A stretch of DNA of 35,820 nt from a phage, in assembly GCA_037431425.1 (NCBI GenBank), contig GCA_037431425.1_4129.3. One strand, 5' to 3'. The translations under genes were made by a program, and so were the position numbers. Shown here piece by piece: positions 4,527-32,754 of this stretch. The notes beneath the pieces are model-generated. The model saw nothing but the letters and a program-made list of their open reading frames with translations, had not been told where the DNA came from and searched no databases. Position 1 is the stretch's first letter; every line of letters starts with the position of its first letter.

Positions 4527-5074
4527 GTGTTAAAGAAGTTCCCTTTGGTGAATATGGTTCACGTGCAAATTTTGTATTCTGCTATTTCTTTGCAAGAGGA
4601 TGTAATCCCTACGAAAACTATGAGTTGAATGATATACCAGAAGTAAATTTAGTATTACTTCAACTACGATGGGATGGCCTTCTGGGTGGATGTGGTGGTA
4701 CAGTTGAAAGTACTGATATCTCATTAGAAGATGCGTTGCGTCGTGAAATACAAGAAGAAATGAACTACTATATTTTTGTTTCTCACTTAAAACCACTTAA
4801 AACGTTTGAAATTTACCCAGGTGCAAACAGTCATAGTTTCAGTTATGAAGTAACATATGATGAGTTAAAATACATTCGTGATGGGTATACAACTGCCAAA
4901 CATGCAAGTGCCGAAGTTGCTGGTGTAAATTTATGTCATATTTCTCGTTATTCTAAGGGACAAAATCGAGAAGCGGGATATAATAATCTTATGACACAGA
5001 ACTTCATCGGTACAGCAAAACACGAATTAGCGTATCTGGTACAAAAAGAGAACTTACTAATTAGCTATCTATAG
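4523..5074 (+). CDS. Nudix-like hydrolase (NudE-like, putative)
   Basis: GGTVESTDISLEDALRREIQEEMN resembles the Nudix box (REUxEE core), with atypical spacing between the Glu and RE; start overlaps the Sir2 stop (ATGA). Confidence 0.5.
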   Translation: MSVKEVPFGEYGSRANFVFCYFFARGCNPYENYELNDIPEVNLVLLQLRWDGLLGGCGGTVESTDISLEDALRREIQEEMNYYIFVSHLKPLKTFEIYPGANSHSFSYEVTYDELKYIRDGYTTAKHASAEVAGVNLCHISRYSKGQNREAGYNNLMTQNFIGTAKHELAYLVQKENLLISYL

Positions 5075-5084
5075 GAGTTTAAAA

Positions 5085-5405
5085 ATGTCTTACTCTATGT
5101 TTTTGGATGACATTCGTGATGCAAAACAATATTACCCTAATCAAGATATGGTAGTATGTCGTGATTTTAACAGTGCGTGTGAATATGTTGTTAAAAATGG
5201 AATTCCAGCATTTGTATCATTTGACCATGACTTGGGTGATATGAGTGGAGACGAAAAAACTGGATATTCTTTTGCTAAATTTCTTATTGATTATATGTTT
5301 GATAATAATATTAAAGAACCGTTTGAGTACTTTGTGCACAGTAGTAATCCAGTTGGTAAAGTTAACATTGAAACATACTTAAACAATGGATTTAATGCAT
5401 TATGA
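5085..5405 (+). CDS. Hypothetical protein, possibly a CheY/REC-like fold
   Basis: ORF with AGGAG SD; receiver-like spacing of acidic/Asp/Ser/Lys residues (FLDD..., VSFDHDLG, HSSNP, GK); weak. Confidence 0.5.
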   Translation: MSYSMFLDDIRDAKQYYPNQDMVVCRDFNSACEYVVKNGIPAFVSFDHDLGDMSGDEKTGYSFAKFLIDYMFDNNIKEPFEYFVHSSNPVGKVNIETYLNNGFNAL

Positions 5406-5704
5406 TTCAAACACATATTAAAAGTATCATTTGCACTATACTACTAGGTGTAGGAGTTCTATGGTTCAGTAATTATCACGAGAACACTAAGCGTACAAAT
5501 ATTCACTATAATACCGCAGAAGTTGTAAGTTTAGGACAATGTAGTGAGTCCAAATGTTCGTTCATGTACAAAACCAGTAATGGTGAAGTACGTAATGGAC
5601 TATCTAGTGAACCAGTTTCGATTGGTCAACTTGTTTACCAGGAGTGCTGGGAAGAAAAGGTTCGAGGTTCACGATGTTATGTTGAATACGAACCAAAAAT
5701 GTAA
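5402..5704 (+). CDS. Hypothetical membrane-anchored Cys-containing protein
   Basis: ATGA-coupled ORF; N-terminal hydrophobic helix. Confidence 0.5.
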   Translation: MIQTHIKSIICTILLGVGVLWFSNYHENTKRTNIHYNTAEVVSLGQCSESKCSFMYKTSNGEVRNGLSSEPVSIGQLVYQECWEEKVRGSRCYVEYEPKM

Positions 5705-5767
5705 TAATAACATGAGTCAATAATAATAGCCGGGTACAAGGATGTACTCACAATTCAAGGATGTTTT

Positions 5768-7207
5768 ATGAAAAAATATACAATTGACACAAACGTACTA
5801 CTATCTGATCCAAATGCATCTGTTGCTTTTGATGGTGCTGCAATCATTCTACCATTTACAGTACTGGAAGAATTGGATTCGATTAAGAGTCGCAATGTTG
5901 ATGTTTCACGTGATGCTCGTGTTGCGATTCGTAACATTGAAGCAATTATTGCAGAGGCATCACATAATGAGATTAGTTGTACTGGTGTTAATATTGCTGA
6001 TGTTCATACCAATATGAGTCCTGAAAGCAAATTGTTTGTTATTACAAACGAAGAAGCTGAAGCACTAATTCGTACTAAGGCAATTGAAGATAAAGTTCAA
6101 ACACTTCTCAAAAGTTCTGTACCAGATGATAAAATTATCTTAGTCGCTTTAGCAACTGATTCAGTACTGGTTACCCGTGATATCAATATGCGTATCAAGG
6201 CTCTTAGTTATGGAGTTGAAGTACAGGATTATCGTCATGATGTGGTTATCGGTGATAGCGATCTAATGCACGTAGGTCAACATCATCTCGATATCGATTT
6301 CTGGGCAGAATTCAGTGGGATTGAAAATGCTGAAATTAAATCTGAAAAAACAGGTCGCCGCCTGTATCATTATATCCCAACACATCTAATCAAAGATCTT
6401 CTTCCACAAAATCTTTGTATTGGTGACTATCTATATGATAATGCTGATGTGCTCTTTGTTTACGAAGGTCAGTCTGCAATCGAAGAAGATGATGGTAGTC
6501 TAACACCAGAAGATATTTTGGTCTTCCAAGATATTGGTCAATCTGTTGCATTACGTGCTAATGTATGGGATATTAAAGCGAAGAATGTCAAACAAGCACT
6601 AGCTATTAATAGTATTCTCGATCCCGATGTACATCTAACAGTTCTACTAGGTTCTGCTGGGACGGGCAAAACACTAATTACGATTGCTACTGCACTAGAG
6701 TTAGTTCTGGAAAAACGTAAATACGACCGTATTATCTTCTCTAAAACACAAGATTCACAGTTTGAAGATATCGGATTCTTGCCTGGTTCAGAGGCCGAGA
6801 AAGTGATTCCATTTTGTGGTCCAGCGATTGACGCACTAGAGTACCTACATAAAGATGATGCAAATCCACAAGGTAGCATTGAGGAAATCATGAAACGTAA
6901 TGTTATCCAGTTCAAAGCATTGAACTTTATTCGTGGTCGTTCTTTTGCCAATACAATTCTAATTGTGGATGAAGCACAGAACTTAACACCAGCCCAGCTA
7001 AAAACTGTCTTGACAAGAGCCGGAGAAAACTGTAAAGTAATCATACTTGGTAACCTAGCACAGATCGATAACAAGTTTATCAGTCCAGTAAACAGCGGTC
7101 TAACTTATGTAACTGAGAAATTTAAAAATTGGTCTGGTTGTCGTATCATTGAATTGGAAGGTGTTGTTCGTTCACCACTTGCTGAATTTGCTGAAGAAAA
7201 TATGTAA
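5768..7207 (+). CDS. phoH: PIN-domain / PhoH-like ATPase fusion (PhoH2/YlaK-type)
   Basis: N-terminal PIN-like YTIDTNVLL...; Walker A LGSAGTGKT; PhoH-like IVDEAQNLT and GNLAQID; SD AAGGA upstream. Confidence 0.85.
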   Translation: MKKYTIDTNVLLSDPNASVAFDGAAIILPFTVLEELDSIKSRNVDVSRDARVAIRNIEAIIAEASHNEISCTGVNIADVHTNMSPESKLFVITNEEAEALIRTKAIEDKVQTLLKSSVPDDKIILVALATDSVLVTRDINMRIKALSYGVEVQDYRHDVVIGDSDLMHVGQHHLDIDFWAEFSGIENAEIKSEKTGRRLYHYIPTHLIKDLLPQNLCIGDYLYDNADVLFVYEGQSAIEEDDGSLTPEDILVFQDIGQSVALRANVWDIKAKNVKQALAINSILDPDVHLTVLLGSAGTGKTLITIATALELVLEKRKYDRIIFSKTQDSQFEDIGFLPGSEAEKVIPFCGPAIDALEYLHKDDANPQGSIEEIMKRNVIQFKALNFIRGRSFANTILIVDEAQNLTPAQLKTVLTRAGENCKVIILGNLAQIDNKFISPVNSGLTYVTEKFKNWSGCRIIELEGVVRSPLAEFAEENM

Positions 7208-7211
7208 TATT

Positions 7212-7244
7212 GTATGGGACAATATGTCCCATACATGATATAAT
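7212..7244 (+). promoter_or_regulatory. Perfect 9-bp-stem palindrome overlapping a promoter (-35-like GGGACA, extended -10 TGaTATAAT)
   Basis: GTATGGGAC-AATAT-GTCCCATAC at 7212-7234 with no U-tract, followed by TGATATAAT at 7236-7244. Confidence 0.45.
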
Positions 7245-7276
7245 GCTGTTATCATAATACAGAAGGAGATAGTAAA

Positions 7277-7480
7277 ATGGCTAAACAACCTAAGAAAAAA
7301 GAACCAGTAGCTAAAGTTAAAAAAGCAAAAGTTATTACATCCACAGAACAACGTATGTACGAACAACGTATGTACGAACAACGTAAGAGTGAAACACTTT
7401 CTGGTCTACAAGCTCTTCGCAAACAAGGAGTTCTAACTCGTGCACAATATCGTAAGTTGGTAACACAAAAAGGTTATTGA
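7277..7480 (+). CDS. Small lysine-rich basic protein
   Basis: 67-aa ORF with strong SD (AGAAGGAGA); contains a tandem EQRMY-EQRMY repeat. Confidence 0.6.
   Translation: MAKQPKKKEPVAKVKKAKVITSTEQRMYEQRMYEQRKSETLSGLQALRKQGVLTRAQYRKLVTQKGY
7344..7373. repeat. Exact 15-bp tandem duplication inside the CDS
   Basis: gaacaacgtatgtac x2. Confidence 0.8.
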
Positions 7481-7582
7481 TACATTTGAAGTAATATTAT
7501 GGGGTTCTTAATAAATAACATTATAAGAATAATAATACTTTTTATTAAATTAAAAAGAACTCCATGTGTTATTTCAGTTTTT

Positions 7583-7610
7583 ATCCCTGTCGGTTGGCAG
7601 GGATTTTTTC
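7583..7610 (+). terminator. Rho-independent terminator
   Basis: ATCCCTG-tcggttgg-CAGGGAT followed by TTTTTT. Confidence 0.65.
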
Positions 7611-7705
7611 TATCTATGTATTGACAAAAGGATTAATTTATGAGAACATGTATAAAAGGCCGTATGACATTCCATTAGGTTATTTTTAACTTAAAGGAGA
7701 TATAT

Positions 7706-8263
7706 ATGTTTTTTGACCAAACATTTACGTTGTACCATGATTCTGGTAAAGTTGAGATTATTGAAAATCTATTACAGTACATTGCAGATCATGATGGTGT
7801 TGAACGTTTCCATAGTAAGATGAAATTCGATTTAGCTGAATTCAACAAAAAGAATCGTGAAACTTTTTGGAAGAACCGATTCTATTATGAAATGTTTCCA
7901 GAAAGGTTTGTTGGTTATTATCTTTGTACTGAGAAAGGTTTATTAGTATCTCCAGATTTACTTATGGGTGAATACATGGTTCTCTATAATGAGTACTGGA
8001 AAAATAAACGTAACGCTCGTGACATTGAGTGGAGACATAAGCGTTCGTACATGTACAAACACAACCACTCCCGATACAAACGTCCTAAGACTCAACAAGA
8101 GCGTCGTATGGCGTGTGCAGTACTGAAGGACGAGGGGGAACCTGAAATACGTGGAAGACGTAAGATGCGTTCATTACCATCGTATTGGAACGATATCAGA
8201 ACAAGACATAGTACCGGATGGAAATACAGTACTAAGCGTAAAAAACAATACAAAGGGGGCTAA
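7706..8263 (+). CDS. Hypothetical protein with highly basic C-terminus
   Basis: ORF with AAGGAG SD; Arg/Lys-rich tail. Confidence 0.6.
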   Translation: MFFDQTFTLYHDSGKVEIIENLLQYIADHDGVERFHSKMKFDLAEFNKKNRETFWKNRFYYEMFPERFVGYYLCTEKGLLVSPDLLMGEYMVLYNEYWKNKRNARDIEWRHKRSYMYKHNHSRYKRPKTQQERRMACAVLKDEGEPEIRGRRKMRSLPSYWNDIRTRHSTGWKYSTKRKKQYKGG

Positions 8264-8290
8264 TGCTCCCTATTTTATAGGTTAAACGTT

Positions 8291-8620
8291 ATGAGCAAAA
8301 TTAATGTTGATGTAGATATTGGTTATATTGAAATTGAACCGTGTAGTATTGATACAATGATTGACACTCTTAGTAAGTACCGTGCAGAGTACAGGGGGCA
8401 TATTAGTATTTCACCAGACGGTGGTTACGGTGGATTCCATGGATACAATGTGATTTGGTCCAGAGAAGAAACAGACGAAGAATATAATACACGAATTGAA
8501 GCTGAATCTAAAAGACGTGAAGAAATTGAACGTCAAGAAATGAAACACTTAATGAACAAGAAATCATTAAGTACCGAAGAGAAATATAAACTGCTAAAAT
8601 ACATCAAGGATTACATGTAA
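8291..8620 (+). CDS. Hypothetical protein
   Basis: ORF in the operon frame; weak SD. Confidence 0.5.
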   Translation: MSKINVDVDIGYIEIEPCSIDTMIDTLSKYRAEYRGHISISPDGGYGGFHGYNVIWSREETDEEYNTRIEAESKRREEIERQEMKHLMNKKSLSTEEKYKLLKYIKDYM

Positions 8621-9270
8621 TGAAAAATGTAACACAAGAAAAGATTCTATACCTTGCAAAATATAATGGTGGTTTCAATATCATTAGCCGTGAGTACCAT
8701 GGTAATTTGGCTAAGTTGATTGACAGTTTGTTAGAATTTGATTTCATTAAATGGGAAACTAATGAACTTTGGTACGAATATGCTGGTCAGCAATGGGAAA
8801 GTGACTACGATCATGCAATTCATACGTATACAATCACTAAAAGTGGTGAAGTATGTTTAGCTATCATGCGTTGTGCATATACTTACAAACATCACAAAGG
8901 TGAAGAAAAGCATATTCGCAGAAACGAAGAATTACTTCACCTAATGGGTGAAGCTGGTATTACAATGCATGACTTGTTCAATGAACCAAGATGGACTAGA
9001 ACTCTTACTAAAGCTGAATATAAATCATTACGATACATTGATGAACAAAGCAACACCCCAGATGAAATTGATGATGTTAGTGATGATGAACTAAGCCTCA
9101 AAAATGTATTTGAAAGTACCAGCACTGAAAGTATTACTGATATTTCAGTACAGATGGCACTAAAAGCAATGGAACTTTTCAAGACACAATATGAAGGGCA
9201 CAGTGCTGAAGAAGTAGAGCGTGAGTTCATTACACGTGTACAGATTGCATTGTTCCAATCGAAAAAGTAA
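8620..9270 (+). CDS. Hypothetical protein
   Basis: TAATG stop-start coupling with the upstream ORF. Confidence 0.55.
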   Translation: MKNVTQEKILYLAKYNGGFNIISREYHGNLAKLIDSLLEFDFIKWETNELWYEYAGQQWESDYDHAIHTYTITKSGEVCLAIMRCAYTYKHHKGEEKHIRRNEELLHLMGEAGITMHDLFNEPRWTRTLTKAEYKSLRYIDEQSNTPDEIDDVSDDELSLKNVFESTSTESITDISVQMALKAMELFKTQYEGHSAEEVEREFITRVQIALFQSKK

Positions 9271-9367
9271 ATTTTTACTTGTACTAATCGCAGTTCTTAT
9301 GGTATTATCTTGTTCAGTTAGTAATGGTAAACCATCAATTGAGTACTTATGTATAGGTGATTAAATT

Positions 9368-9601
9368 ATGAAATTTATTTCTATAGCAATTATTTCAGCA
9401 CTCATGATGTTAGTAACAGGATGTGCACCTAAAGTTGATGAGATGGATGCTGAAATCATCCGTCAAGGTTTAACAAAACTAAATCACCAAGGAACACTAT
9501 ACGCATGTCATACTATGCGTCATGGGCAAGATCTTAATCTCATGTGCAGGAAGATTGTGAACCGCAAACGTCTTAATACTGTTCCGAAGGATGCACAATG
9601 A
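9368..9601 (+). CDS. Putative lipoprotein
   Basis: Signal peptide with lipobox-like LVTGC; SD AGGTGA. Confidence 0.5.
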   Translation: MKFISIAIISALMMLVTGCAPKVDEMDAEIIRQGLTKLNHQGTLYACHTMRHGQDLNLMCRKIVNRKRLNTVPKDAQ

Positions 9602-9768
9602 AAGAAATAATTGGCTACAAATGTAAAAATTGTGGCAAAGTTCAGGGTAAGCATTCAGTACAAGGTAAGGCTTGTCCAAATCCAGGACGTGGTAATTTCA
9701 GAGGGTTCAGTACTGAAAAGTCTTATGAACCTGATTATTCAAAACCAGTGATGGGCTATAAGTTATGA
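9598..9768 (+). CDS. Small Cys-rich (zinc-ribbon-like) protein, 56 aa
   Basis: Not in the ORF track (<60 aa). ATG 9598 overlaps the upstream stop, SD GAAGG 7 nt upstream, stop overlaps the next start; CxxC...C pattern. Confidence 0.4.
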   Translation: MKEIIGYKCKNCGKVQGKHSVQGKACPNPGRGNFRGFSTEKSYEPDYSKPVMGYKL

Positions 9769-10124
9769 GTGATTATGTGGCATTTCTTCATCGATATGGT
9801 GAAGCTAAAGAAAAACATATTATTCGTATGCCAGTATATGGTGAAAAAGACTGGTACAAAAGCACTATCAGTGTAGGTGCATTTCGTAACCGTGAATCTG
9901 AATTCTTTCTTGGTAAGCAACATGAACGCGAGGTACTTTGCTCACTTTGGCGTTTAGATGAATGGGATAGTGAAAATTCCAGAACGGCTGAATCAATGAT
10001 GGCTATTGTTGGTATTGCGAACTATCAGCACCCATATGATCTATTACCTACATTTGAACATGCTTCTTTGTTTGACTTTTACAAAGCAGTAGGGTATGAT
10101 TATAAAAAGAAACGTTACATTTAA
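9765..10124 (+). CDS. Hypothetical protein
   Basis: ATGA-coupled ORF. Confidence 0.5.
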   Translation: MSDYVAFLHRYGEAKEKHIIRMPVYGEKDWYKSTISVGAFRNRESEFFLGKQHEREVLCSLWRLDEWDSENSRTAESMMAIVGIANYQHPYDLLPTFEHASLFDFYKAVGYDYKKKRYI

Positions 10125-10152
10125 TAACAGCACCTTTTAAATTGGAGAAATC

Positions 10153-10767
10153 ATGACTACATCTGAAAAGTACTGGTGGATTTTGGGCCATCCTAAATTC
10201 ATCAACGGAGATATGGTTCCCCCAAGGATTGATATCGAACCACATGATGTGTGTCCAATCACAAACCGCATTGAATCATTTAAAGCTCTGAATACAAAGA
10301 CACAATTTTGGGTAGAATTCATCTCACCTATGTACGTTGAGCAAGATGATGAATGGGTACAAGCACATGATTATGAGTTAGATTGCGGTGGTGATACTTA
10401 TGATGAGGCAATTGACGCACTATACAAAAATGTGCTAAACACTTATGGTGATTACACCCAACAAGAAGCAGACGATACGTTTAATAAGATCCATGCAGCC
10501 ATTTCTACATCATCAATTTACAATCCAGCAAAAACAGTTTGGGAAGAACGTCACGGGTGGAGTTCATCTGTAATTGATGCAGAAGCCAAAGAAACAATTC
10601 TCGAAGACATAAAAAATATAAAAAGTACAATAGAAGCCTTGCGTGAATTTATAAAGTCTTGTACAATAGAACAACAGAAAGAGGCAAAGATGCATTTGGA
10701 AAGTGAAGAATGTAAACTTTGGGTTCTAGAGAAATCTATTGAAAAGGGTATAGACTTAGACTTATGA
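10153..10767 (+). CDS. Hypothetical acidic protein
   Basis: ORF with GGAG SD. Confidence 0.55.
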   Translation: MTTSEKYWWILGHPKFINGDMVPPRIDIEPHDVCPITNRIESFKALNTKTQFWVEFISPMYVEQDDEWVQAHDYELDCGGDTYDEAIDALYKNVLNTYGDYTQQEADDTFNKIHAAISTSSIYNPAKTVWEERHGWSSSVIDAEAKETILEDIKNIKSTIEALREFIKSCTIEQQKEAKMHLESEECKLWVLEKSIEKGIDLDL

Positions 10768-11132
10768 ATAGTAAATTGGAGAAATTAATCGAAGAATTAC
10801 GCCAGATGCCGCCGATTGAACAAGTAGGTAATTATAAACGGTATCGTATTATTGCTCGTGCACTTGATAAAAAAGGTAGAGTACTGGCAACTCGCACAAA
10901 TTCTTATACACAGACTCACCCTAAGCAGAAAAACTTTGCAGTTAAAGCTGGAAGAAATGATGCAATATGGTTACATGCTGAAATAAGCTGTTTACTCGCA
11001 GCAAGGGCTGATGTTCACACATTATTAATTGCACGGGTTAGTAAAGATGGAATTCCCGTTTCTGCAAAACCATGTGAAATTTGCTCTTTAGCAATACAAG
11101 AATACGGAGTAGTTGAAGTAATACATACATAG
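10764..11132 (+). CDS. CDA-fold zinc-dependent deaminase-like protein
   Basis: HAE (LHAEISCLL) and PCxxC (KPCEICS) zinc-ligand motifs; ATGA coupling. Confidence 0.55.
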   Translation: MNSKLEKLIEELRQMPPIEQVGNYKRYRIIARALDKKGRVLATRTNSYTQTHPKQKNFAVKAGRNDAIWLHAEISCLLAARADVHTLLIARVSKDGIPVSAKPCEICSLAIQEYGVVEVIHT

Positions 11133-11145
11133 GTAGAATATTTTC

Positions 11146-12222
11146 ATGGAAGAAATAAAAAAAGAATTAAATCAATTTAATGAATACGTATATAATTTGT
11201 ATTTTAATAAAAATATTATTTTTACTTGGATGAAACCTGAAGATATAAAGTATATAAAAACATCATCATCAAGTAAATCTCCATTTTACTTTGAAAAATT
11301 AATACTCAATAAATCATTTTCAAATTATCATTTTGAATTTCTTGGTTTTAATATAAAAAAATCAGATGATTGGATAGGAAAGCTTACAAATATAGTAATT
11401 AAGTTGAATGATATAATATATATACGTAACATAAAATCTTTTTTGGAGATGCCTGTGACTCTCAAGCGTGTCCCATATGTGATTCATAATTCTAATAATA
11501 TTAGTTACTATTTAAACAAATACAATAAAAATTTAAAATATATAAATTGTATGTATGATAAAATCAATGAAAAAACTTATTTAGATTTACAATGTAAAAT
11601 ATGTGGTTATGAATATAAATCATGTTTAAACAATATTAAACATAGAAGTACAGATTGTCCTGGTTGTATGAATAATGTTGTATTATCTGAAGATGATATG
11701 TTATATAGAATAACATTGAAATTATATACACAACCACATATAAAATTATTAAATTTCAACTATAATAACGGTGGTAATAAGAATGCAATAGGTACATATT
11801 ATTGTGAAATACACAATTATACATGGGATTCTATGTATTTTGGGACAATTGCAAAAGATCAAAGTTGTAAACTTTGTATGCAAGGTCAATCTAAAGGTGA
11901 AAAATATATCACTGAAATATTGGATAATTTAAAGGTAAATTATATAAGAGAATATAAATTTGATAAATGTTTTAATCAAAGAAAATTACCTTTTGATTTT
12001 TATATTCCAGATTTCAATTTATGTATAGAATATGATGGAAGACAACACTTTGAATCTGTGGATTTTTATGGTGGAAACGATGCTTTTTTTATAAGAAAAA
12101 AGAATGATGAAATAAAAAATTCATTCTGTGAAAATAATAATATTACATTATTAAGATTTAATGATCTCAATTTTTCTCGTATTGAATCAACATTGAATAG
12201 AATACTAAAAAGTGTTAAATAA
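11146..12222 (+). CDS. Putative free-standing homing-type endonuclease (Cys-pair zinc-finger region + DUF559/Vsr-like nuclease C-terminus)
   Basis: Much more AT-rich than neighbours; several CxxC pairs; C-terminal ...FDFYIPDFNLCIEYDGRQHFE...ITLLRF resembling the DUF559 restriction-endonuclease-like signature. Confidence 0.5.
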   Translation: MEEIKKELNQFNEYVYNLYFNKNIIFTWMKPEDIKYIKTSSSSKSPFYFEKLILNKSFSNYHFEFLGFNIKKSDDWIGKLTNIVIKLNDIIYIRNIKSFLEMPVTLKRVPYVIHNSNNISYYLNKYNKNLKYINCMYDKINEKTYLDLQCKICGYEYKSCLNNIKHRSTDCPGCMNNVVLSEDDMLYRITLKLYTQPHIKLLNFNYNNGGNKNAIGTYYCEIHNYTWDSMYFGTIAKDQSCKLCMQGQSKGEKYITEILDNLKVNYIREYKFDKCFNQRKLPFDFYIPDFNLCIEYDGRQHFESVDFYGGNDAFFIRKKNDEIKNSFCENNNITLLRFNDLNFSRIESTLNRILKSVK

Positions 12223-12444
12223 ATGAAAATTGAACGCTACCAAAACCATACAGTTGTGACTGAAGATGATATATTTTATTTTTATATTTTTTCACCTAAT
12301 CACTGTTTGCAAATAACAACATTTAATGATGGTAAATTTAAAGATATCAATTTTCCAGTATCAGAATTAGCTAAATATTCCAGTACTGAACACTTTAGTA
12401 ATCTAGTATTTGTGTACTGTATTCCAAACTCAAATAATAAGTAG
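12223..12444 (+). CDS. Hypothetical small protein (in the AT-rich insert)
   Basis: 73-aa ORF directly abutting the endonuclease gene; same extreme AT-richness. Confidence 0.35.
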   Translation: MKIERYQNHTVVTEDDIFYFYIFSPNHCLQITTFNDGKFKDINFPVSELAKYSSTEHFSNLVFVYCIPNSNNK

Positions 12445-12453
12445 GAGATTAAA

Positions 12454-12813
12454 ATGGCTAAAACAATTTCTTTAAAAAATGAAAAGGTAGGACAACGAAA
12501 AGATGGCTTCTATGGTTTTTCTTGGACCACATTATTTTTTGGACCTTTCCCTGCATTGTTCCGTGGTGACTTTATTACGTTTATCGGTGCATTTGTAATT
12601 TACTTCATCCTAAACGCAGTGTCTTTTTGGATTGTGGGTACAATTGCAATGGTCGTGTGGGCGTTTATTTACAATAAGTACTACACGGTGAATCTCATCA
12701 AGAATGGGTATAAATTCAATGGTACACATGAAGAAAATGCTGAAGCTGCAATGGCTTTGCAAATTGATTTGAATAAAAACAACACAGTTGATAAAAATAA
12801 AGATCCTGAGTAA
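12454..12813 (+). CDS. Hypothetical membrane protein (two TM segments)
   Basis: ORF with AGGAG SD; hydrophobic core. Confidence 0.55.
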   Translation: MAKTISLKNEKVGQRKDGFYGFSWTTLFFGPFPALFRGDFITFIGAFVIYFILNAVSFWIVGTIAMVVWAFIYNKYYTVNLIKNGYKFNGTHEENAEAAMALQIDLNKNNTVDKNKDPE

Positions 12814-13032
12814 ATGGAAAAATATGATATAATTTACGATTATTACGGTAAGGCTTATATGAAGTGTGGACGTTATGTTGAACTCTCTAATAGAGAATCA
12901 ATAGATCCCCACACTCTTATAACAATTCATAATTCGTACTATAAAAAAGTTACAATAGCTAATTTCGCTACCTACGTAAATAATCCGTTATTTCCTTACA
13001 TTATTCAGTACTACTGTCGAGTTATAAAATAA
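12814..13032 (+). CDS. Hypothetical protein
   Basis: ORF adjacent in the operon. Confidence 0.45.
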   Translation: MEKYDIIYDYYGKAYMKCGRYVELSNRESIDPHTLITIHNSYYKKVTIANFATYVNNPLFPYIIQYYCRVIK

Positions 13033-13043
13033 GGTAAAAAGAC

Positions 13044-13454
13044 ATGTTAGCCGATGATTTTATGTCTCTAAGTACCAAAATATTTGATATATTAGGGGAT
13101 GAAATAGATTTTCATCTAAATGATACAACTATACCATTCGAAGATGGTGGTTATTTTTTCGCAATTGGTTATAAGTACAATGTTGATTTTTCAATTCCGG
13201 TTCCTGATGGAAGTGATTATGCAGAATCAACATATTTTGAATTTCAGTTCAGTGGGCATACTGAGCGTTTACTAACATATAGACGTAAAGGAAATTTCAG
13301 TAGGTCAGAGATCATATTAATGGATTTTGAAAAACGCATAGAACTTGCAAAGAATAATCCATTTATTAGTACTTACGCGTTAAACCAACTTATTGAACTA
13401 TTTGATGGCTATCCAGACAGAATACGAGGGTCGTTACGTATAAATGCAGAATGA
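13044..13454 (+). CDS. Hypothetical protein
   Basis: ORF with AAGG upstream. Confidence 0.5.
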   Translation: MLADDFMSLSTKIFDILGDEIDFHLNDTTIPFEDGGYFFAIGYKYNVDFSIPVPDGSDYAESTYFEFQFSGHTERLLTYRRKGNFSRSEIILMDFEKRIELAKNNPFISTYALNQLIELFDGYPDRIRGSLRINAE

Positions 13455-13629
13455 AATCTTTAAAAAAGAATACGATGGTGAAAGCCTTTATGATATTCAG
13501 AGAGATGTTCATGAAGCCTTTGATTCAAAATTTAACCCATTAGCTGAACAAATCCCACAAGATGAATTTGGTTTTCAGGAAGGCACTTTCACAGTGACTA
13601 TTACATGGAGTCCAGATGAGACTAGCTAA
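13444..13629 (+). CDS. Hypothetical protein
   Basis: Overlapping ORF in the operon. Confidence 0.4.
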   Translation: MQNEIFKKEYDGESLYDIQRDVHEAFDSKFNPLAEQIPQDEFGFQEGTFTVTITWSPDETS

Positions 13630-13732
13630 ACTTGTCATAGGGTGTAGTGCAATTGCTGCATATATGATTTTTTCACCTCCAACCAATGTATTACTGCTAA
13701 TTTGGGCGGTTGTTATATTAGCAGTACTTTAA
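13616..13732 (+). CDS. Possible 38-aa hydrophobic peptide
   Basis: Not in the track; ATG 13616 overlaps the upstream 3' end; ends at TAA just before a terminator. Confidence 0.25.
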   Translation: MRLAKLVIGCSAIAAYMIFSPPTNVLLLIWAVVILAVL

Positions 13733-13765
13733 AGCACCCCATAGTGGGTGTTTTTCTTTTTTTTG
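13731..13765 (+). terminator. Rho-independent terminator
   Basis: GC-rich hairpin (GCACCC...GGGTG) followed by a long T-run. Confidence 0.55.
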
Positions 13766-13898
13766 TACAAATAAAAAGCAATGTCTCAATTCCTTGATAT
13801 AGGTCAAGAGAAATAACCAGCTATTACGCTATAATGCTTTCTGTTGTTGTTAAATAACTTCACCCCCAGATGATTTCAAAAAATACAAGGAGTGTACT

Positions 13899-15704
13899 GT
13901 GCAATTGAATAAATTATACACGGACGTAACGAATTTTCTAAACCAGAGTAATACTGATCTTACAAATGAAAACGCAAATAAAGATGCCAAATGTGTAAAT
14001 ACACACAGAGATTTACTTGCTGGTATCTTATCTAAACATTATTCACAAGATGTTATTCCAAAGGATCTAATGCAGTGGCACAATGATGGATATGGTCACA
14101 TTCATGATTTGGACTACTATATTAGTCCATTAACAAACTGTTGTTTGGTTAATTATCCAGATATGCTTAAACATGGGTTTACTATCGGGTGTGCTAAAAT
14201 CGAAGAACCAAAGAGTTTTAGTGTAGCATGTACGGTGCTAACACAGATTGTACAAGCTGTTGCAAGTTCCCAATATGGTGGTCAATCGTTGGCTCACATT
14301 GATGTCGGATTGGAACCTTATGTACAAAAGTCTTGGGAAAAGTTATTAGAAAAACAAAAGAAATATAATCTAAGCGATGATTTTATTGAAGAAGAATTAC
14401 GAAAAGAAGTATATGATGGGTGTCAAACATTACTATATCAGACCAATTCAATGATTAGCACTAATGGACAAGCTGCATTCATTTCTCTTAGTTTAGGACT
14501 TAATACTTCCAAATTTGGAAAATTAATCACTGAACAGTACTTGAAAGTTCACGAGAATGGTTTAGGTAAAGATAAGATTACACCAGTGTTTCCTAAAGTT
14601 ATTTTCTTTCTACAAGATGGTATTAACATGAATGTCAATGATAGTAATTATGATCTTAAACAGTTAGCTATGCGTTGTGCATCAAAAAGAATCTATCCAG
14701 ATTTTGTTTCAGTACCATTAAATCATAAAGTGACGGGAAGTAGTAGCACTGCGGTAACACCGATGGGCTGTCGTTCATTCTTAGGAAAATGGGAAGATTC
14801 AAATGGAAATGAACAATACAACGGTCGCTTCAATTTAGGTGTAGTTTCTATCAATTTACCACTAATTGCTCTTGAAAGTGCCTCAGATGGAGAGTTTTTT
14901 GATAAAATAGACGAGCATATGAATATTGCATATCGTGCTCAGATGAACCGCGTAGAGCGTTTAAAAGGTACAAAAGCGAAACAGAATCCAATTTTGTTTA
15001 TGGAAGGTGCATTAGCACGTTTAAGTGCAGAAGAAACTATTGACAAGCTATTTTACAATGGTTATGCTAGTATTAGTATTGGTTATGTTGGACTTGTTGA
15101 ATGTTCGGAAATCCTCACTGGTTCTATCAGTAAGGAGTTTTGTATGTCAGTACTGAATTATATGAAAGTAAAATGCGATGAGTTCAAAAAAGAAAGTAAT
15201 ATTGCTTTTAGTCTATATGGAACTCCAGCAGAGTCGCTTTGTTATAAATTTGCACGTTGCATTGAAGCAAAATATCCTTCAGTTCTCAAACGAGATTTCA
15301 TTACAAATTCATTCCATCAACCAGTATGGGTTGAAAGTTCCGCTTTTGAAAAGTGGGATTATGAGGAAAACTTTGCGTATCTAAGCAATGGTGGGAATAT
15401 TAGCTATGTTGAAACACCAAACCTGGCTAATAATATACAAGCACTTGAAACATTGATCAATTATGCATATGATAAAATTCCATATTTTGGAATTAATCAG
15501 AAAGTAGATAAGTGTTTTGAATGTAATTTTGAGGGAGAATTTAGTGTAGATAAAAATGGTTTTCATTGCCCTGTATGTAATAACAGAAATGAGCGAACAA
15601 TGTCTGTTATACGTAGGGTATCTGGATATCTTAGTGCACCAAATAGTCGCCCGTTTAATAAAGGTAAACAAGCTGAAGTAATTCAGCGTATACAGCATAT
15701 GTAA
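13899..15704 (+). CDS. nrdD: Anaerobic ribonucleoside-triphosphate reductase (class III RNR)
   Basis: 601 aa; C-terminal glycyl-radical motif RRVSGYLS and zinc-ribbon CFECNF...CPVCNN; overall layout as in T4 NrdD; GTG start with AAGGAG 6 nt upstream; no intron interruption. Confidence 0.9.
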
Positions 15705-27588: not shown

Positions 27589-28206
27589 ATGAACAAATAT
27601 CATGTTTACTATAAGACTAATTTATCACTACTGGAAAAATTAAACCATAAAAGTACTAAGATTAAACACTACACATTAAATGGAATTACTTTTAAGTATT
27701 TTCCACAAAAAGTTCTTACATTTATTAAGAATCCAAAATGCATAGCATGTGGTATTGAAGCAACAGAAGTACGTATTGAACGTACATTTAGTTCTGACCC
27801 AATTTTCGGTAAACCACATTTAAATCTATATGCAGTATGTGGTCTTTATGAAGTTTTAATGACAGTTGACCATAATAATCTAGCATCAAAAGGTGGTCCA
27901 GATTTAGAGTCGAACTTTAATACTATGTGCTCCAGATGCAATCAACTACGTTCAAATAAAACTGAATCAGTTGATGAGTTTCTTGTGAAAGTTAAAGGTC
28001 GTAATCTTCTACAAGAACATATGAATAATTTCTTTAATGTGCAAAATGGACAAAAGAAAAATAGTATTGATAAATCAAAACTACTAGAAGAACGTAGATT
28101 ACAACAAGAATTATGGGAAACTGATCATTTATGGCATGTTCGAGAATTTGGTCGCCATATGAAAGCGTTAAAAAAAGAACAAAAGAAATTGAACAATCAC
28201 AATTAA
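27589..28206 (+). CDS. HNH endonuclease (free-standing homing-endonuclease-like)
   Basis: VDHNNLASKGGPDLESNFNTMCSRCNQ (H-N-H with flanking Cys pairs CIAC/CSRC). Confidence 0.65.
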   Translation: MNKYHVYYKTNLSLLEKLNHKSTKIKHYTLNGITFKYFPQKVLTFIKNPKCIACGIEATEVRIERTFSSDPIFGKPHLNLYAVCGLYEVLMTVDHNNLASKGGPDLESNFNTMCSRCNQLRSNKTESVDEFLVKVKGRNLLQEHMNNFFNVQNGQKKNSIDKSKLLEERRLQQELWETDHLWHVREFGRHMKALKKEQKKLNNHN

Positions 28207-28617: not shown

Positions 28618-29016
28618 ATGCTTAAAGAATTAGATTTTTCAAACTTAGAAATTATCAGTGCTGTTAAAAACATCTCCGACATGGGAGATGAGAAATCAGT
28701 GCTTGTTACTATTACTTTTGTAAAAGAAGAAGATAGTTATAGTCATTTGACTGGTATTGAAGAACTAATTCATAAAACCAATCTTGAAAATAATGGTAAA
28801 CTCATCAAACTTCAGGCATCCTATATCCAAAAAACATCAAATTTTATAGACATAAATAATATAGTCAAGGTGGTATATAATCATCCTGACCACAAATATA
28901 GGAATACATCAAGAAATGAAAATATTGCGAAAGATACTAACATCATAGAAGATGTTGACTTTATCAATACTATTTTTGATCGTTGCTCTATTGATTTGAA
29001 AAAAGTATACATGTAA
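28618..29016 (+). CDS. Hypothetical protein
   Basis: ORF 2 nt after the upstream stop. Confidence 0.5.
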   Translation: MLKELDFSNLEIISAVKNISDMGDEKSVLVTITFVKEEDSYSHLTGIEELIHKTNLENNGKLIKLQASYIQKTSNFIDINNIVKVVYNHPDHKYRNTSRNENIAKDTNIIEDVDFINTIFDRCSIDLKKVYM

Positions 29017-29045
29017 TGGGACAATAATTGAACCTGTGATATAAT
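29017..29045 (+). promoter_or_regulatory. Promoter: -35-like TGGGACA plus extended -10 TGaTATAAT
   Basis: TGGGACAATA at 29017-29026, TGATATAAT at 29037-29045; same motif and spacing as at 7215-7244. Confidence 0.5.
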
Positions 29046-29326
29046 GTATATTGTAAAATGACAACGGACATTGTAAAAAATGGACACTGAAAACCTAATT
29101 CACTTGAAAATGTAAAGGATAGATGAGCTTTACCGTTGTAGCGAACAGCAGAAGAAACCCGTTAGAGTACTGGCATTCAAACAAACACGATGTAAGACCA
29201 CGAATCACGGCGACACGGCTGTATAAAGAACTCCGATAAGCATACAGAGAGTTCCTAGATAGATGTATAAGGTTCGCACCTTACCAGATTTGCTAAGGGA
29301 GTTTAAGAATGGCGAACGCAATTTTT

Positions 29327-29355
29327 ACAAGAAAGTTGCGTCCAAAATTTGAGAA
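29327..29355. repeat. Direct repeat copy 1 (29 nt)
   Basis: ACAAGAAAGTTGCGTCCAAAATTTGAGAA; 26/29 identical to copy 2, 153 bp away. Confidence 0.8.
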
Positions 29356-29479
29356 CAAGTACTACTTTGATCGAATAGAGTTAGTACTGAGTGCTGTTGA
29401 TGAAAAGACCAGCGACCGTTGCATATGACTGCGATAGAGAGAAACCGAGCAACCCGCTTTCGCTCTCTAAATCTTTGGT

Positions 29480-29508
29480 ACGAGAAAGATCCGTCCAAAA
29501 TTTGAGAA
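29480..29508. repeat. Direct repeat copy 2 (29 nt)
   Basis: ACGAGAAAGATCCGTCCAAAATTTGAGAA. Confidence 0.8.
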
Positions 29509-29546
29509 ATTCGCAATTCGATAATATCCGATGCCATCAGCGTCAA

Positions 29547-29573
29547 GAAGAGACTTAATTGTCTCTTTTTTAT
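29547..29573 (+). terminator. Rho-independent terminator closing the non-coding island
   Basis: AAGAGAC-ttaatt-GTCTCTT followed by TTTTTT. Confidence 0.65.
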
Positions 29574-29712
29574 TACTTTCATTCCCCTGTGGGGGGATGA
29601 AATAGTCCTCAACAAATCCCGTCAAGTTATTAAAATACATTATCATTATTCAGAAGTAACAAGTTTACGAAGTAAACGAAGTGACTTCTTGGGTTGCGAG
29701 AGAACGAAGTGA

Positions 29713-30141
29713 ATGAGTAACACAACGAAAATATATAATAAATCTGAATTAACACAATTGTTATTCAAAGAATATTTTGAGTTTCAGATAAAAGACGAAC
29801 ATCAATTACCACAACAATACTTGAAAAGAATTAAAGATACGTCAGTAATTACTAAAGAAACTAATTTTTATAATAGTATTTTGGATTTCGTTAAATCAGT
29901 TCATACGACAAGACCTATTGTAGTTTTGTTTTTTGATAAATCTATCCCTTTAGTAGTTCCCGAAAATGTATTTTTTATCTCAGAAACTGATTTAAATAAC
30001 CAAAGTACTGTAAGTAGATTAAGAAATTGCTTACTTGTAGTATGTGATTCCTATTTGTATAATAACAGAATACTATGGGATAGAAGTAAACGTAATGCAG
30101 TTTCGGAAATGAACCCTGAACTTACATTTATTATTAACTAA
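29713..30141 (+). CDS. Hypothetical protein
   Basis: 142-aa ORF; first gene after the non-coding island. Confidence 0.5.
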   Translation: MSNTTKIYNKSELTQLLFKEYFEFQIKDEHQLPQQYLKRIKDTSVITKETNFYNSILDFVKSVHTTRPIVVLFFDKSIPLVVPENVFFISETDLNNQSTVSRLRNCLLVVCDSYLYNNRILWDRSKRNAVSEMNPELTFIIN

Positions 30142-30621: not shown

Positions 30622-30651
30622 GGAGAGTCATTGTGACTCTCCTTTTCTTTT
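30622..30651 (+). terminator. Rho-independent terminator
   Basis: GGAGAGTCA-ttg-TGACTCTCC followed by TTTTCTTTT. Confidence 0.8.
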
Positions 30652-32274: not shown

Positions 32275-32754
32275 ATGTATAACCTTACAATTATCCGCGA
32301 ACCAAATGAATATGATGGTGATACGACATATGGTGAAGTTTTGGTATTTCAAAGTACTGAACAAAGTGAAATTGAACGTGAATTAAAAGATTATTTACGT
32401 GAACATTTATATCTATACCGTACTGATGCAAATTGTCATTATGGTGATATAATGTTTATTGTAACACATAATGGTGTAGTAATTGAATATGTGAATATGA
32501 CAAATGCTATGGATTTTCTTAATTACACTGATACTTCTACACCATTGGATAATTATTTCAGTACTGTTTTTGATGAATTACGTAAGAACGTTTCTAGAAA
32601 TGATAGATTCTGCACTAATGTTGAATTATTAGAATCAAATACAAGAAAGAATCTTTCTAAAAAGTATGATGAGGAACGTAGAAAAAATATGGAAATTAAA
32701 CATTTACATGAGTTAATGAAGAAATATCCCAATGAGGTCAAATATGGCTCTTAG
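32275..32754 (+). CDS. Hypothetical protein
   Basis: ORF with AAGGAG SD. Confidence 0.55.
   Translation: MYNLTIIREPNEYDGDTTYGEVLVFQSTEQSEIERELKDYLREHLYLYRTDANCHYGDIMFIVTHNGVVIEYVNMTNAMDFLNYTDTSTPLDNYFSTVFDELRKNVSRNDRFCTNVELLESNTRKNLSKKYDEERRKNMEIKHLHELMKKYPNEVKYGS

Follow-up and report, generated by a model that had tools for sequence, protein, structure and literature searches.

We examined the gap at positions 29017-29712 of a 35,820-nucleotide (nt) stretch of phage DNA (contig GCA_037431425.1_4129.3 of GenBank assembly GCA_037431425.1), the whole of which we call the window. An earlier reading of the letters alone, hereafter the original prediction, had proposed that this gap holds a structured non-coding RNA (ncRNA) bounded by its own promoter and terminator. 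Our comparative analysis supports the proposal with a conserved promoter, a covarying terminator stem and 13 further covarying helices, one of them a pseudoknot, and we consider it very probable that the locus is a real gene for a structured RNA whose family is undescribed.

The near-identical record to the window here is that of Escherichia phage ph0011 (OP557969.1; 99.9% identity by blastn), a 348-kb Asteriusvirus and one of the Rak2/121Q/PBECO4-like jumbo myoviruses, which carries no annotation in the gap. The upstream neighbour is a gene for a DUF7325 'structural protein' (28618-29016), and the downstream neighbour is a hypothetical gene on the plus strand (29713-30141). As predicted, the gap contains no credible open reading frame (ORF) on the plus strand, where the longest has 55 amino acids (aa); a 96-aa ORF on the minus strand (29325-29615) is not conserved among homologs. 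The GC content, put at about 50% in 29140-29220 by the original prediction, is 49.4% in this segment, 40.0% across the RNA and 39.1% across the whole gap, compared with 30.4% and 33.1% in the flanks and 33.2% in the entire window. The earlier idea that the gap lies where T4-like phages keep their transfer RNA (tRNA) genes was wrong: the tRNA cluster of ph0011 is at 299.6-304 kb of the record, about 185 kb from the RNA, so the gap is not in the tRNA region. No cloverleaf had been foldable from the letters, and ARAGORN likewise found no tRNA or transfer-messenger RNA (tmRNA) gene in the window.

A promoter and a terminator bound the predicted transcript

A consensus scan identified a sigma-70-type promoter on the plus strand (29018-29045), with a -35-like GGGACA (29018-29023), a gap of 13 nt to the TG and the extended -10 element TGATATAAT at 29037-29045, which is where the original prediction had seen it. 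The promoter matches the consensus at 10 of 12 positions, plus the TG. The motif TGnTATAAT stands at a fixed position in 31 of the 33 family members introduced below, including the copies in chromosomal islands, and a TGGRACA-like -35 followed by TGnTATAAT is the architecture common to the promoters of the family. From the position of this promoter, transcription would start at about 29052.

The hairpin that had been proposed to close the gap was recovered by a terminator scan at 29545-29570, followed by a T-run. This intrinsic terminator (29546-29573, plus strand) consists of the stem AGAAGAGAC/GUCUCUUUU, the loop UUAAUU and the U-run. Across the family, its stem (29549-29554 with 29561-29566) is 94% paired and has compensatory changes in four of six pairs. 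One of the four copies of the RNA in the ph0011 genome, paralog D, lacks the terminator hairpin and keeps the T-run alone. The predicted transcribed region of the window copy (copy A of the four paralogs), with ends set by the promoter and the terminator and an interior supported by the family alignment and by covariation, spans 29052-29573 on the plus strand, about 520 nt. With its own conserved promoter and Rho-independent terminator, the locus has the sequence features of an independently transcribed ncRNA gene.

The same class of promoter may occur once more in the window, as a 21-nt stretch at 32444-32464 shares 95% identity with the RNA promoter over its spacer and -10 region (29036-29056).

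Compensatory changes support a strand-specific fold

Family members were collected by pattern scans of IMG/VR, metagenomes and GTDB genomes, and the hits were passed through a family-profile filter (nhmmer), which separated true members from chance pattern matches. This gave about 48 true matches, 33 of them distinct and full-length. A global RNAalifold run on the whole alignment produced noisy long-range pairs, and we therefore used segment-wise folding, a blind covariation scan and manual correction of the register. The resulting structure of 15 helices, 90 pairs and one pseudoknot was scored on the alignment of the 33 distinct members (25 clusters at 92%, mean identity 68%) and compared with slid controls, in which pairing partners were moved by 1-3 columns, and with 500 shuffles.

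In the structure 94.6% of the cells were paired, compared with 40-44% in the slid controls. Changes on both sides were seen in 54 pairs (12-23 in the slid controls), compensatory cells numbered 467 (30-77) and the covariation score was 0.456 (0.05-0.09). None of the 500 shuffles reached the observed values on four of five measures, while the fifth, further pair types, was reached by 13 of them. A blind all-against-all column scan independently recovered the local hairpins, the helix Ha of 7-8 bp and the 7-bp pseudoknot. The nested inverted repeats noticed in the original prediction are real helices by this analysis. G-U or U-G cells outnumbered A-C or C-A cells (232 versus 27), indicating that selection for the fold operates on the plus-strand transcript rather than on its complement. 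Compensatory pairing persists among the paralogs despite a divergence of about 25%, which implies selection on the RNA. Overall, the alignment points to a structured RNA under strand-specific selection for its fold.

Two domains on three-way junctions joined by a pseudoknot

The predicted layout comprises two multi-helix domains on three-way junctions, joined by the 7-bp pseudoknot, plus optional peripheral modules; all features lie on the plus strand. In the 5' domain (29061-29139), the long-range helix Ha (29061-29068 with 29132-29139) closes a three-way junction and shows compensatory changes in seven of its eight pairs, with up to five pair types per position. A small 5' hairpin (29069-29082) lies inside this junction. 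The domain also contains the hairpin H2 (29100-29105 with 29115-29119), with compensatory changes in all five pairs and the conserved loop GAAAAYGUA (29106-29114), and a near-invariant AGAUGAG in the junction (29121-29127).

In the next helix, Hb (29145-29149 with 29218-29222), AU/UA, GC/CG and UA/AU swaps leave 100% of the cells paired. Inside it lie the conserved GCAGAAGAAACCCGU, helix Hc (29159-29162 with 29207-29210; 99% paired) and a variable expansion hairpin, which is swapped for a UUCG loop in some relatives (L012, L017, L027). The central region (29223-29301), delineated by covariation and invariant columns, contains the conserved AUAAAGA, the hairpin Hd (29228-29233 with 29249-29254; 97.5% paired, compensatory in all six pairs), the near-invariant CUAGAUAGA (29255-29263), the hairpin He (29268-29271 with 29280-29283) and CUAAGGGAG with the invariant UAAGGGA inside it (29293-29301).

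The first copy of the optional peripheral module (29326-29355) is a hairpin with GUCCAAAAUUUGAGAA and forms the first arm of a 30-nt direct repeat (29326-29355 and 29479-29508, 90% identical). The module is an insert at two different sites of the RNA, of which relatives have 0, 1 or 2, and it is missing in paralogs B and C. It is followed by the long hairpin Hg (29358-29388; 29358-29368 with 29377-29388), in which nine of 11 pairs show compensatory changes. The Hg loop AUCGAAU (29370-29376) pairs with AUUCGAU (29516-29522), just 3' of the second three-way junction, to form the pseudoknot (29370-29522). Its seven pairs are 98.7% paired and four are compensatory (CG/UA 18:15; UA/AU/CG 18:14:1; AU/GC/UA). 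As judged from the alignment, this pairing could form within one molecule or between molecules.

The 3' domain (29392-29515) begins with the hairpin Hh (29392-29396 with 29410-29414; 98% paired) and the invariant GACCGUUGC (29414-29422). Its three-way junction is closed by helix Hi (29430-29434 with 29511-29515; 100% paired) and has the arms Hj and Hk. Hairpin Hj (29437-29441 with 29457-29461) is 100% paired with the pair types AU/GC/CG/UG at position 2, and presents the invariant 15-nt loop AAACMGAGCAACCCG (29442-29456). Helix Hk (29463-29467 with 29504-29508) is 93% paired and compensatory in four of five pairs; its tip is the second copy of the optional module (repeat arm 29479-29508), and in short relatives it has a GAAA cap. 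Directly before the terminator is the small hairpin Hl (29530-29544; GAUG(C)..(G)CGUC), which is 90.6% paired. A one-sided U-G/C-G change is the sole change in its four scored pairs, and a fifth pair is C-G or A-U by eye.

The sequences invariant across genera are the GAAAAYGUA loop, AGAUGAG, GCARAWGANACCCGU, AUAAAGA, GAUAGA, UAAGGGA, GACCGUUGC and the 15-nt loop AAACMGAGCAACCCG. We defined the family by its core motifs, the AAACMGAGCAACCCG loop in a GNGAG/CUUNC hairpin, helices Ha-Hl, the pseudoknot and a palindrome plus a box after the terminator. The window copy carries all family motifs and helices and scores 412 bits against the family profile (nhmmer, E = 1e-124).

Conserved sequence continues past the terminator

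The original prediction had the span from promoter to terminator right and ended the element too early, as conserved sequence runs about 55 nt beyond the terminator. This part (29578-29624, plus strand) comprises the near-invariant palindrome or hairpin UUCAUUCCCC-UGU-GGGGGGAUGAA (29578-29601) and the box CAACAAAUCCCGUCA (29610-29624), with the family forms UUCAUUCCCC-UGY-GGGGGGAUGAA and CAACAAAUCYCGUCA. Both follow every family member, including the island copies and paralog D with its missing terminator hairpin. The palindrome (helix 15) showed no covariation in the family alignment. In the 348-kb genome the palindrome and box were found at the four RNA copies only, and we rejected the possibility that they are a general class of promoter or terminator used elsewhere. 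They could act either as read-through RNA or as DNA.

In the window copy an AT-rich spacer extends from here to the start codon at 29713 (29625-29712), with local hairpins (AGAAGU..ACUUCU; GUUUAC-GAA-GUAAAC) and a repeated ACGAAGUGA. Other genera have a different conserved module in this place. In members from outside Asteriusvirus (L010, L013, L015, L029 and others), the sequence GAAUUGAG...GUAC...AACGAAAAUUCUUUGACAUUCGAAGAAUGGCAAAUC is found about 40-150 nt past the CGUCA box, and this downstream stretch contains a small hairpin, CAWWC-GAA-GWWUG, with compensatory changes; the window copy is diverged there. The stretch may encode another small RNA or belong to a transcript that reads through.

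The RNA matches neither known RNA families nor a coding frame

The original prediction had proposed a scan against Rfam. We searched the window with the 4227 covariance models of Rfam 15, which include group I and II introns, RNase P, tmRNA, 6S, signal recognition particle (SRP) RNA, pRNA, GOLLD, ROOL, OLE, HEARO, riboswitches and leaders, and obtained no match at gathering thresholds in the whole window. At E ≤ 10, five chance-level matches were obtained in 28900-29800, none of them within the RNA core (29052-29546), and at E ≤ 5 nothing overlapped the RNA in seven other family members. The family, absent from Rfam 15 and with no description in the literature that we searched, appears undescribed, and large structured ncRNAs carried by phages and mobile elements are a known kind.

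Several specific candidates were rejected. The RNA had been suggested to be an intron remnant, which is at odds with its intergenic position, its own promoter and terminator and the negative Rfam intron models; for a group I intron in particular, the upstream gene ends in a stop codon and the genes flanking the four copies are unrelated. A likeness of AGAUGA...CAGAA..ACCCG to RNase P was dropped with the negative Rfam RNase P models. Short motifs resembling 16S ribosomal RNA (rRNA), AACGAGCGCAACCC and GGGGAUGACGUCAAGUC, prompted us to consider an rRNA fragment or mimic, which found no support in alignment tests: the family profile had no nhmmer match in an E. coli rrn operon at E ≤ 100, and the best local alignment with rRNA scored 19, below the shuffle mean of 21-23.

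We found no conserved ORF, as the longest ORFs of the 33 members differ by strand, place and length. The variability of alignment columns showed no three-base periodicity (p = 0.17), and the lengths of gap runs are mostly not multiples of three (541:151:117 for remainders of 1, 2 and 0 modulo 3). The small ORFs of the window had no Pfam match, and their PHROG matches were insignificant (E ~0.3). The comparison of compensatory changes with codon-like conservation, proposed along with the original prediction, thus gave strong covariation and no coding signal; a conserved protein-coding frame in related phages, which had been named as the finding that would speak against a structured RNA, was looked for and not found, and the structured-RNA reading stands. 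Several GenBank records of related phages (for example SHEFM2K, JP4, SD-2_S15 and 121Q gene 516) annotate two to six 'hypothetical proteins' across the RNA locus. Given that there is no conserved frame, these are probably annotation artefacts.

Paralogs are dispersed in the genomes of jumbo phages

The genome of ph0011 has four copies of the RNA, all on the plus strand and in intergenic gaps, at about 61.2, 116.2 (copy A in the window), 198.6 and 314.8 kb. Any two of them share 75-77% identity, and each has its own promoter of the same design. A blastn search of 50,697 phage records detected the RNA core in 72, whose hosts belong to nine genera (Escherichia, Klebsiella, Salmonella, Erwinia, Yersinia, Cronobacter, Pectobacterium, Serratia and Xanthomonas), with 3-5 matching places per record among the 60 listed of the 72. 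The identity in the more distant genera was 66-81%, and the matches there covered the RNA (query positions 142-691 of 811) and not the flanking coding sequence. Its fourfold recurrence in one genome and its conservation across genera put the element far outside chance. Neighbouring genes differ among the copies, and paralog C is situated between two minus-strand genes. In many relatives the RNA is followed by the terminator of a convergent gene.

A gene for an HNH endonuclease (27589-28206; Pfam HNH at 22.1 bits, just over the cut-off) lies 0.8 kb upstream of the RNA in the window, and another HNH gene lies 0.5 kb downstream of paralog B (315850-316638 of the record). There is none near paralogs C and D, and the association is therefore probably coincidental.

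Homologs reside in chromosomal islands

We found a complete homolog in two of 5426 complete E. coli genomes, LR-29-1 (NZ_AP027515.1) and EEC_W5. This RNA is 76% identical to the window copy and 80.6% identical to a Serratia/Erwinia phage copy, and it keeps the promoter, every core motif, the terminator and the post-terminator element. The RNA is carried by an insertion of about 10.5 kb, an island with ffs (SRP RNA) on one side and ybaA on the other. In LR-29-1 (L095, reverse strand) the island spans 4909-15300 and the RNA about 8860-9496; the island of EEC_W5 (L096) has the same gene order. The island encodes a tyrosine integrase split by IS3, several hypothetical genes, a resolvase and the candidate defence systems PDC-M45 (DuOB, DUF488, mSLOG-DUF4326) and PDC-S16 (DUF2188). 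About 450 nt downstream of the RNA, at 9922-9973 of L095, an iteron-like ATTATCGATCGTT occurs twice in tandem and once as an inverted copy; these repeats could be the replication origin of the island.

A second clade of the RNA is present in Citrobacter amalonaticus and in metagenomic contigs with conserved gene order (L089 from C. amalonaticus P55, 1845-6991; L074, 2311-7450; L068, 16-5687). A large serine integrase gene is followed about 90 nt further on the same strand by the RNA, then by a 165-aa gene, a divergent gene for a CI-like S24 repressor, an HTH_35 Cro-like gene and genes for 188-aa and 118-aa proteins. Such an arrangement is that of a temperate element or a satellite. The Citrobacter copy is likewise complete, from promoter through core and terminator to the post-terminator element. 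Its 118-aa neighbour shares 73% identity with a protein encoded in the E. coli island.

The RNA element is the sole part common to islands and jumbo phages, and the remaining island DNA had no phage match. The 118-aa and 165-aa neighbours gave no tblastn match in the 50,697 phage records. A protein partner encoded beside the RNA in both contexts was considered and rejected, since no gene is common to phages and islands. The plasmids of PLSDB contained no match to the RNA.

A proposed trans-acting RNA

Our preferred reading is that the locus is a stand-alone gene for a large structured ncRNA of an undescribed family, which acts in trans through its fold. We assign this whole statement a probability of roughly 60%, lower than that of the structured RNA gene as such. 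Host RNA polymerase with sigma-70 would start at the extended -10 promoter near 29052, and most transcripts would end at the intrinsic terminator (29546-29573) to give an RNA of about 520 nt. Transcription would probably occur early in infection and, in the islands, constitutively. The RNA would then act in trans via its three-dimensional fold, and not by antisense pairing or by controlling a downstream gene. Action in trans is suggested because paralog C and many relatives have no co-directional downstream gene and the neighbours differ everywhere; a role for the tertiary fold is suggested because junctions and loops are invariant while the helices covary. As no protein gene travels with the RNA across phages and islands, it would work alone (as a ribozyme or an RNA-only assembly) or bind a host-encoded enterobacterial factor. 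Because both virulent jumbo phages and integrative islands carry it, and one such island has many defence genes, phage-host or phage-island conflict is the most likely arena.

A more far-reaching version of this proposal is tentative and clearly less probable. The family would be a new class of self-sufficient large RNA, a ribozyme or a self-assembling RNA-only complex like those of GOLLD and ROOL, with 3-5 paralogs per genome, which is exchanged between giant virulent phages and the islands or satellites of Enterobacteriaceae because it decides their conflict. In such a case the covarying pairing of loop and strand may join the paralogs into homo- or hetero-oligomers.

Several points weigh against the trans-acting RNA. 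Its function, partner and any catalytic activity are entirely inferred, both transcript ends are predictions, and the literature we searched contained no expression data or transcriptome for this phage group. Thermodynamic folding of the single sequence gives a modest signal (z = -2.38), and it is therefore the comparative evidence that carries the case. This evidence has its own limits: the structure was curated on the same alignment that was used for scoring, the shuffle control ignores phylogeny, and the slid controls keep the relatedness of the sequences but favour a structure curated on the alignment. The slid controls and the blind scan lessen these concerns about curation and kinship and do not remove them. 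Finally, the palindrome and box, near-invariant, non-covarying and located after a good terminator, point to an additional or alternative role at the level of DNA, which a purely trans-acting RNA leaves unexplained.

Alternative explanations

The first alternative is a narrower form of the conflict idea and is compatible with our preferred reading. The island RNA would belong to a defence or addiction system or serve as its antidote, and the phage paralogs would be decoys or antidotes; or the island copy would interfere with the phage RNAs. The same RNA is indeed found in virulent phages and in a chromosomal island with the candidate systems PDC-M45 and PDC-S16, the island copy is closer to its phage relative (80.6% identity) than the paralogs within ph0011 are to one another, and each phage keeps multiple diverged paralogs. 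However, no toxin-like or nuclease gene consistently adjoins the RNA, and the neighbours in E. coli and in Citrobacter-type loci differ except for the 118-aa protein, which is encoded about 1.5-2.5 kb away. The RNA also lacks the tandem repeats of known type III antitoxins, and defence genes cluster in islands irrespective of any functional link. We consider this narrow explanation unlikely.

Slightly less likely still is a replication-origin module, made of a structured primer transcript and a DNA part with the palindrome, the box and the AT-rich stretch that follows them. The 348-kb genome would then have four origins, and the islands would carry one for replication by a helper phage. This would explain why four dispersed copies (61, 116, 199 and 315 kb) share one orientation and why an invariant, non-covarying palindrome and box unique to the RNA loci lie 3' of the terminator. 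It would also fit the occurrence of the element in islands without an obvious replication gene, one of which has the iteron-like 13-nt repeats about 450 nt downstream, and ColE1 RNA II is a structured RNA of similar size. Against this, two junction domains, a pseudoknot and invariant loops kept across genera go far beyond the known needs of a primer, and the covarying intrinsic terminator would stop most transcripts ahead of the DNA element. The cumulative GC skew follows gene orientation and has no turning point at copies A, B and D, and no initiator gene is linked to any copy.

Origin transcripts of this kind are known from ColE1 (RNA II) and from T4 (oriF and oriG). They are about 0.5 kb long and structured, have host-type promoters and act at a DNA site directly downstream, and T4 has several origins per genome. 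The window RNA differs from them in that it stops at a strong terminator before the DNA element, has a far more constrained fold and comes without evidence from skew or an initiator.

The order of promoter, structured RNA, terminator, conserved sequence and the plus-strand gene at 29713 is also that of a cis-acting leader, such as an attenuator, a riboswitch or a processive antiterminator like put RNA, which would control read-through into the downstream gene. This is very improbable for the family, because paralog C and many relatives have no co-directional gene to control. The downstream genes of the copies are unrelated, the island copies have yet other neighbours, and no known riboswitch or leader family in Rfam matches.

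Least probable of all is a selfish mobile DNA (a homing or miniature element) or a conserved coding or dual-function region, which the multiple copies, the horizontal transfer between phages and islands, the HNH endonuclease genes near copies A and B and the small hypothetical ORFs annotated across the RNA in some GenBank records might suggest, but which is contradicted by the compensatory pairing retained at about 25% divergence, by copies C and D with no adjoining HNH gene, by the lack of a conserved ORF, codon periodicity or protein-family match, and by a repeat search that found no terminal inverted repeats flanking the element (no search aimed at target duplications was made).

Relation to known large RNAs

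Natural RNAs of about 0.5 kb that are this dense in conserved tertiary-type features are rare, and many well-studied ones are catalytic or have unusual mechanisms; examples are group I and II introns, RNase P and the cage-forming GOLLD and ROOL. GOLLD and ROOL are the closest in kind to the window RNA family. They are typically carried by phages or prophages, and their biochemical function is unsolved. Together with OLE, they resemble the window RNA as stand-alone genes for multi-domain, pseudoknotted ncRNAs of more than 400 nt with highly conserved unpaired nucleotides. The window RNA has no match to the Rfam models of these three. In contrast to GOLLD and ROOL, its family is present in jumbo phages of Enterobacterales and in integrative islands, has 3-5 diverged paralogs per genome and includes a conserved element after the terminator. 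GOLLD and ROOL are reported to form RNA-only homo-oligomers (PMC12286853).

The pseudoknot of the window RNA, which could be intra- or intermolecular, recalls the phi29 pRNA as another phage-encoded structured RNA with complementary loop pairing. In pRNA two complementary loops pair between molecules and thereby build a ring; it is about 120-170 nt long, single-copy and encoded beside the packaging genes. The pRNA model of Rfam was negative for the window RNA, which has no link to a terminase or portal gene. Type III antitoxins and pseudo-ToxI offer a parallel of a different sort, an RNA gene found both in bacterial defence loci and in the phages that they target. Some phages carry a pseudo-ToxI RNA against type III toxin-antitoxin systems. 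Type III antitoxins are short tandem repeats beside a toxin gene, whereas the window RNA is a single unit of about 500 nt and has no conserved adjoining protein gene.

In the distantly related jumbo phage PA5oct, four ORF-free loci of 236-619 nt (ncRNA001-004) are supported by RNA-seq, and two of them are highly expressed (PMC7318152). We searched 16.5 kb of PA5oct containing ncRNA001, ncRNA002 and ncRNA004 (L030 464-699 and 14152-14602; L031 317-935) with the family profile (nhmmer, filters off) and found no similarity. With these three ncRNAs unlike the window family, jumbo phages may repeatedly have large ncRNA genes that are not homologous to one another.

RNA genes can go unnoticed in the long intergenic gaps of jumbo phages, where annotation pipelines have placed spurious small ORFs in several GenBank records. 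The RNA described here forms a self-contained cassette, and its movement between virulent phages and chromosomal islands hints that it takes part in conflict between phages and their hosts or satellites. As the phages that carry it infect tractable hosts (E. coli, Salmonella, Klebsiella), its function is directly testable.

Other features of the window

Two features elsewhere in the window deserve mention. At 11084-12225, an insertion of 1142 nt with a GC content of about 26% stands where OP557969.1, otherwise 98-99% identical, has 51 nt. Pfam gave no match for the 358-aa ORF encoded there (11146-12222), and the presence of the insertion in one genome and its absence from the other suggest a free-standing mobile gene. 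The C-terminal FDFYIP...EYDGRQHF of the ORF resembles nuclease motifs, by eye only. The other feature is a perfect 9-bp GC-rich hairpin (30622-30642) in the interval that separates the DUF5856 gene from the ORF after it; with T-runs on both strands, it looks like a bidirectional terminator.

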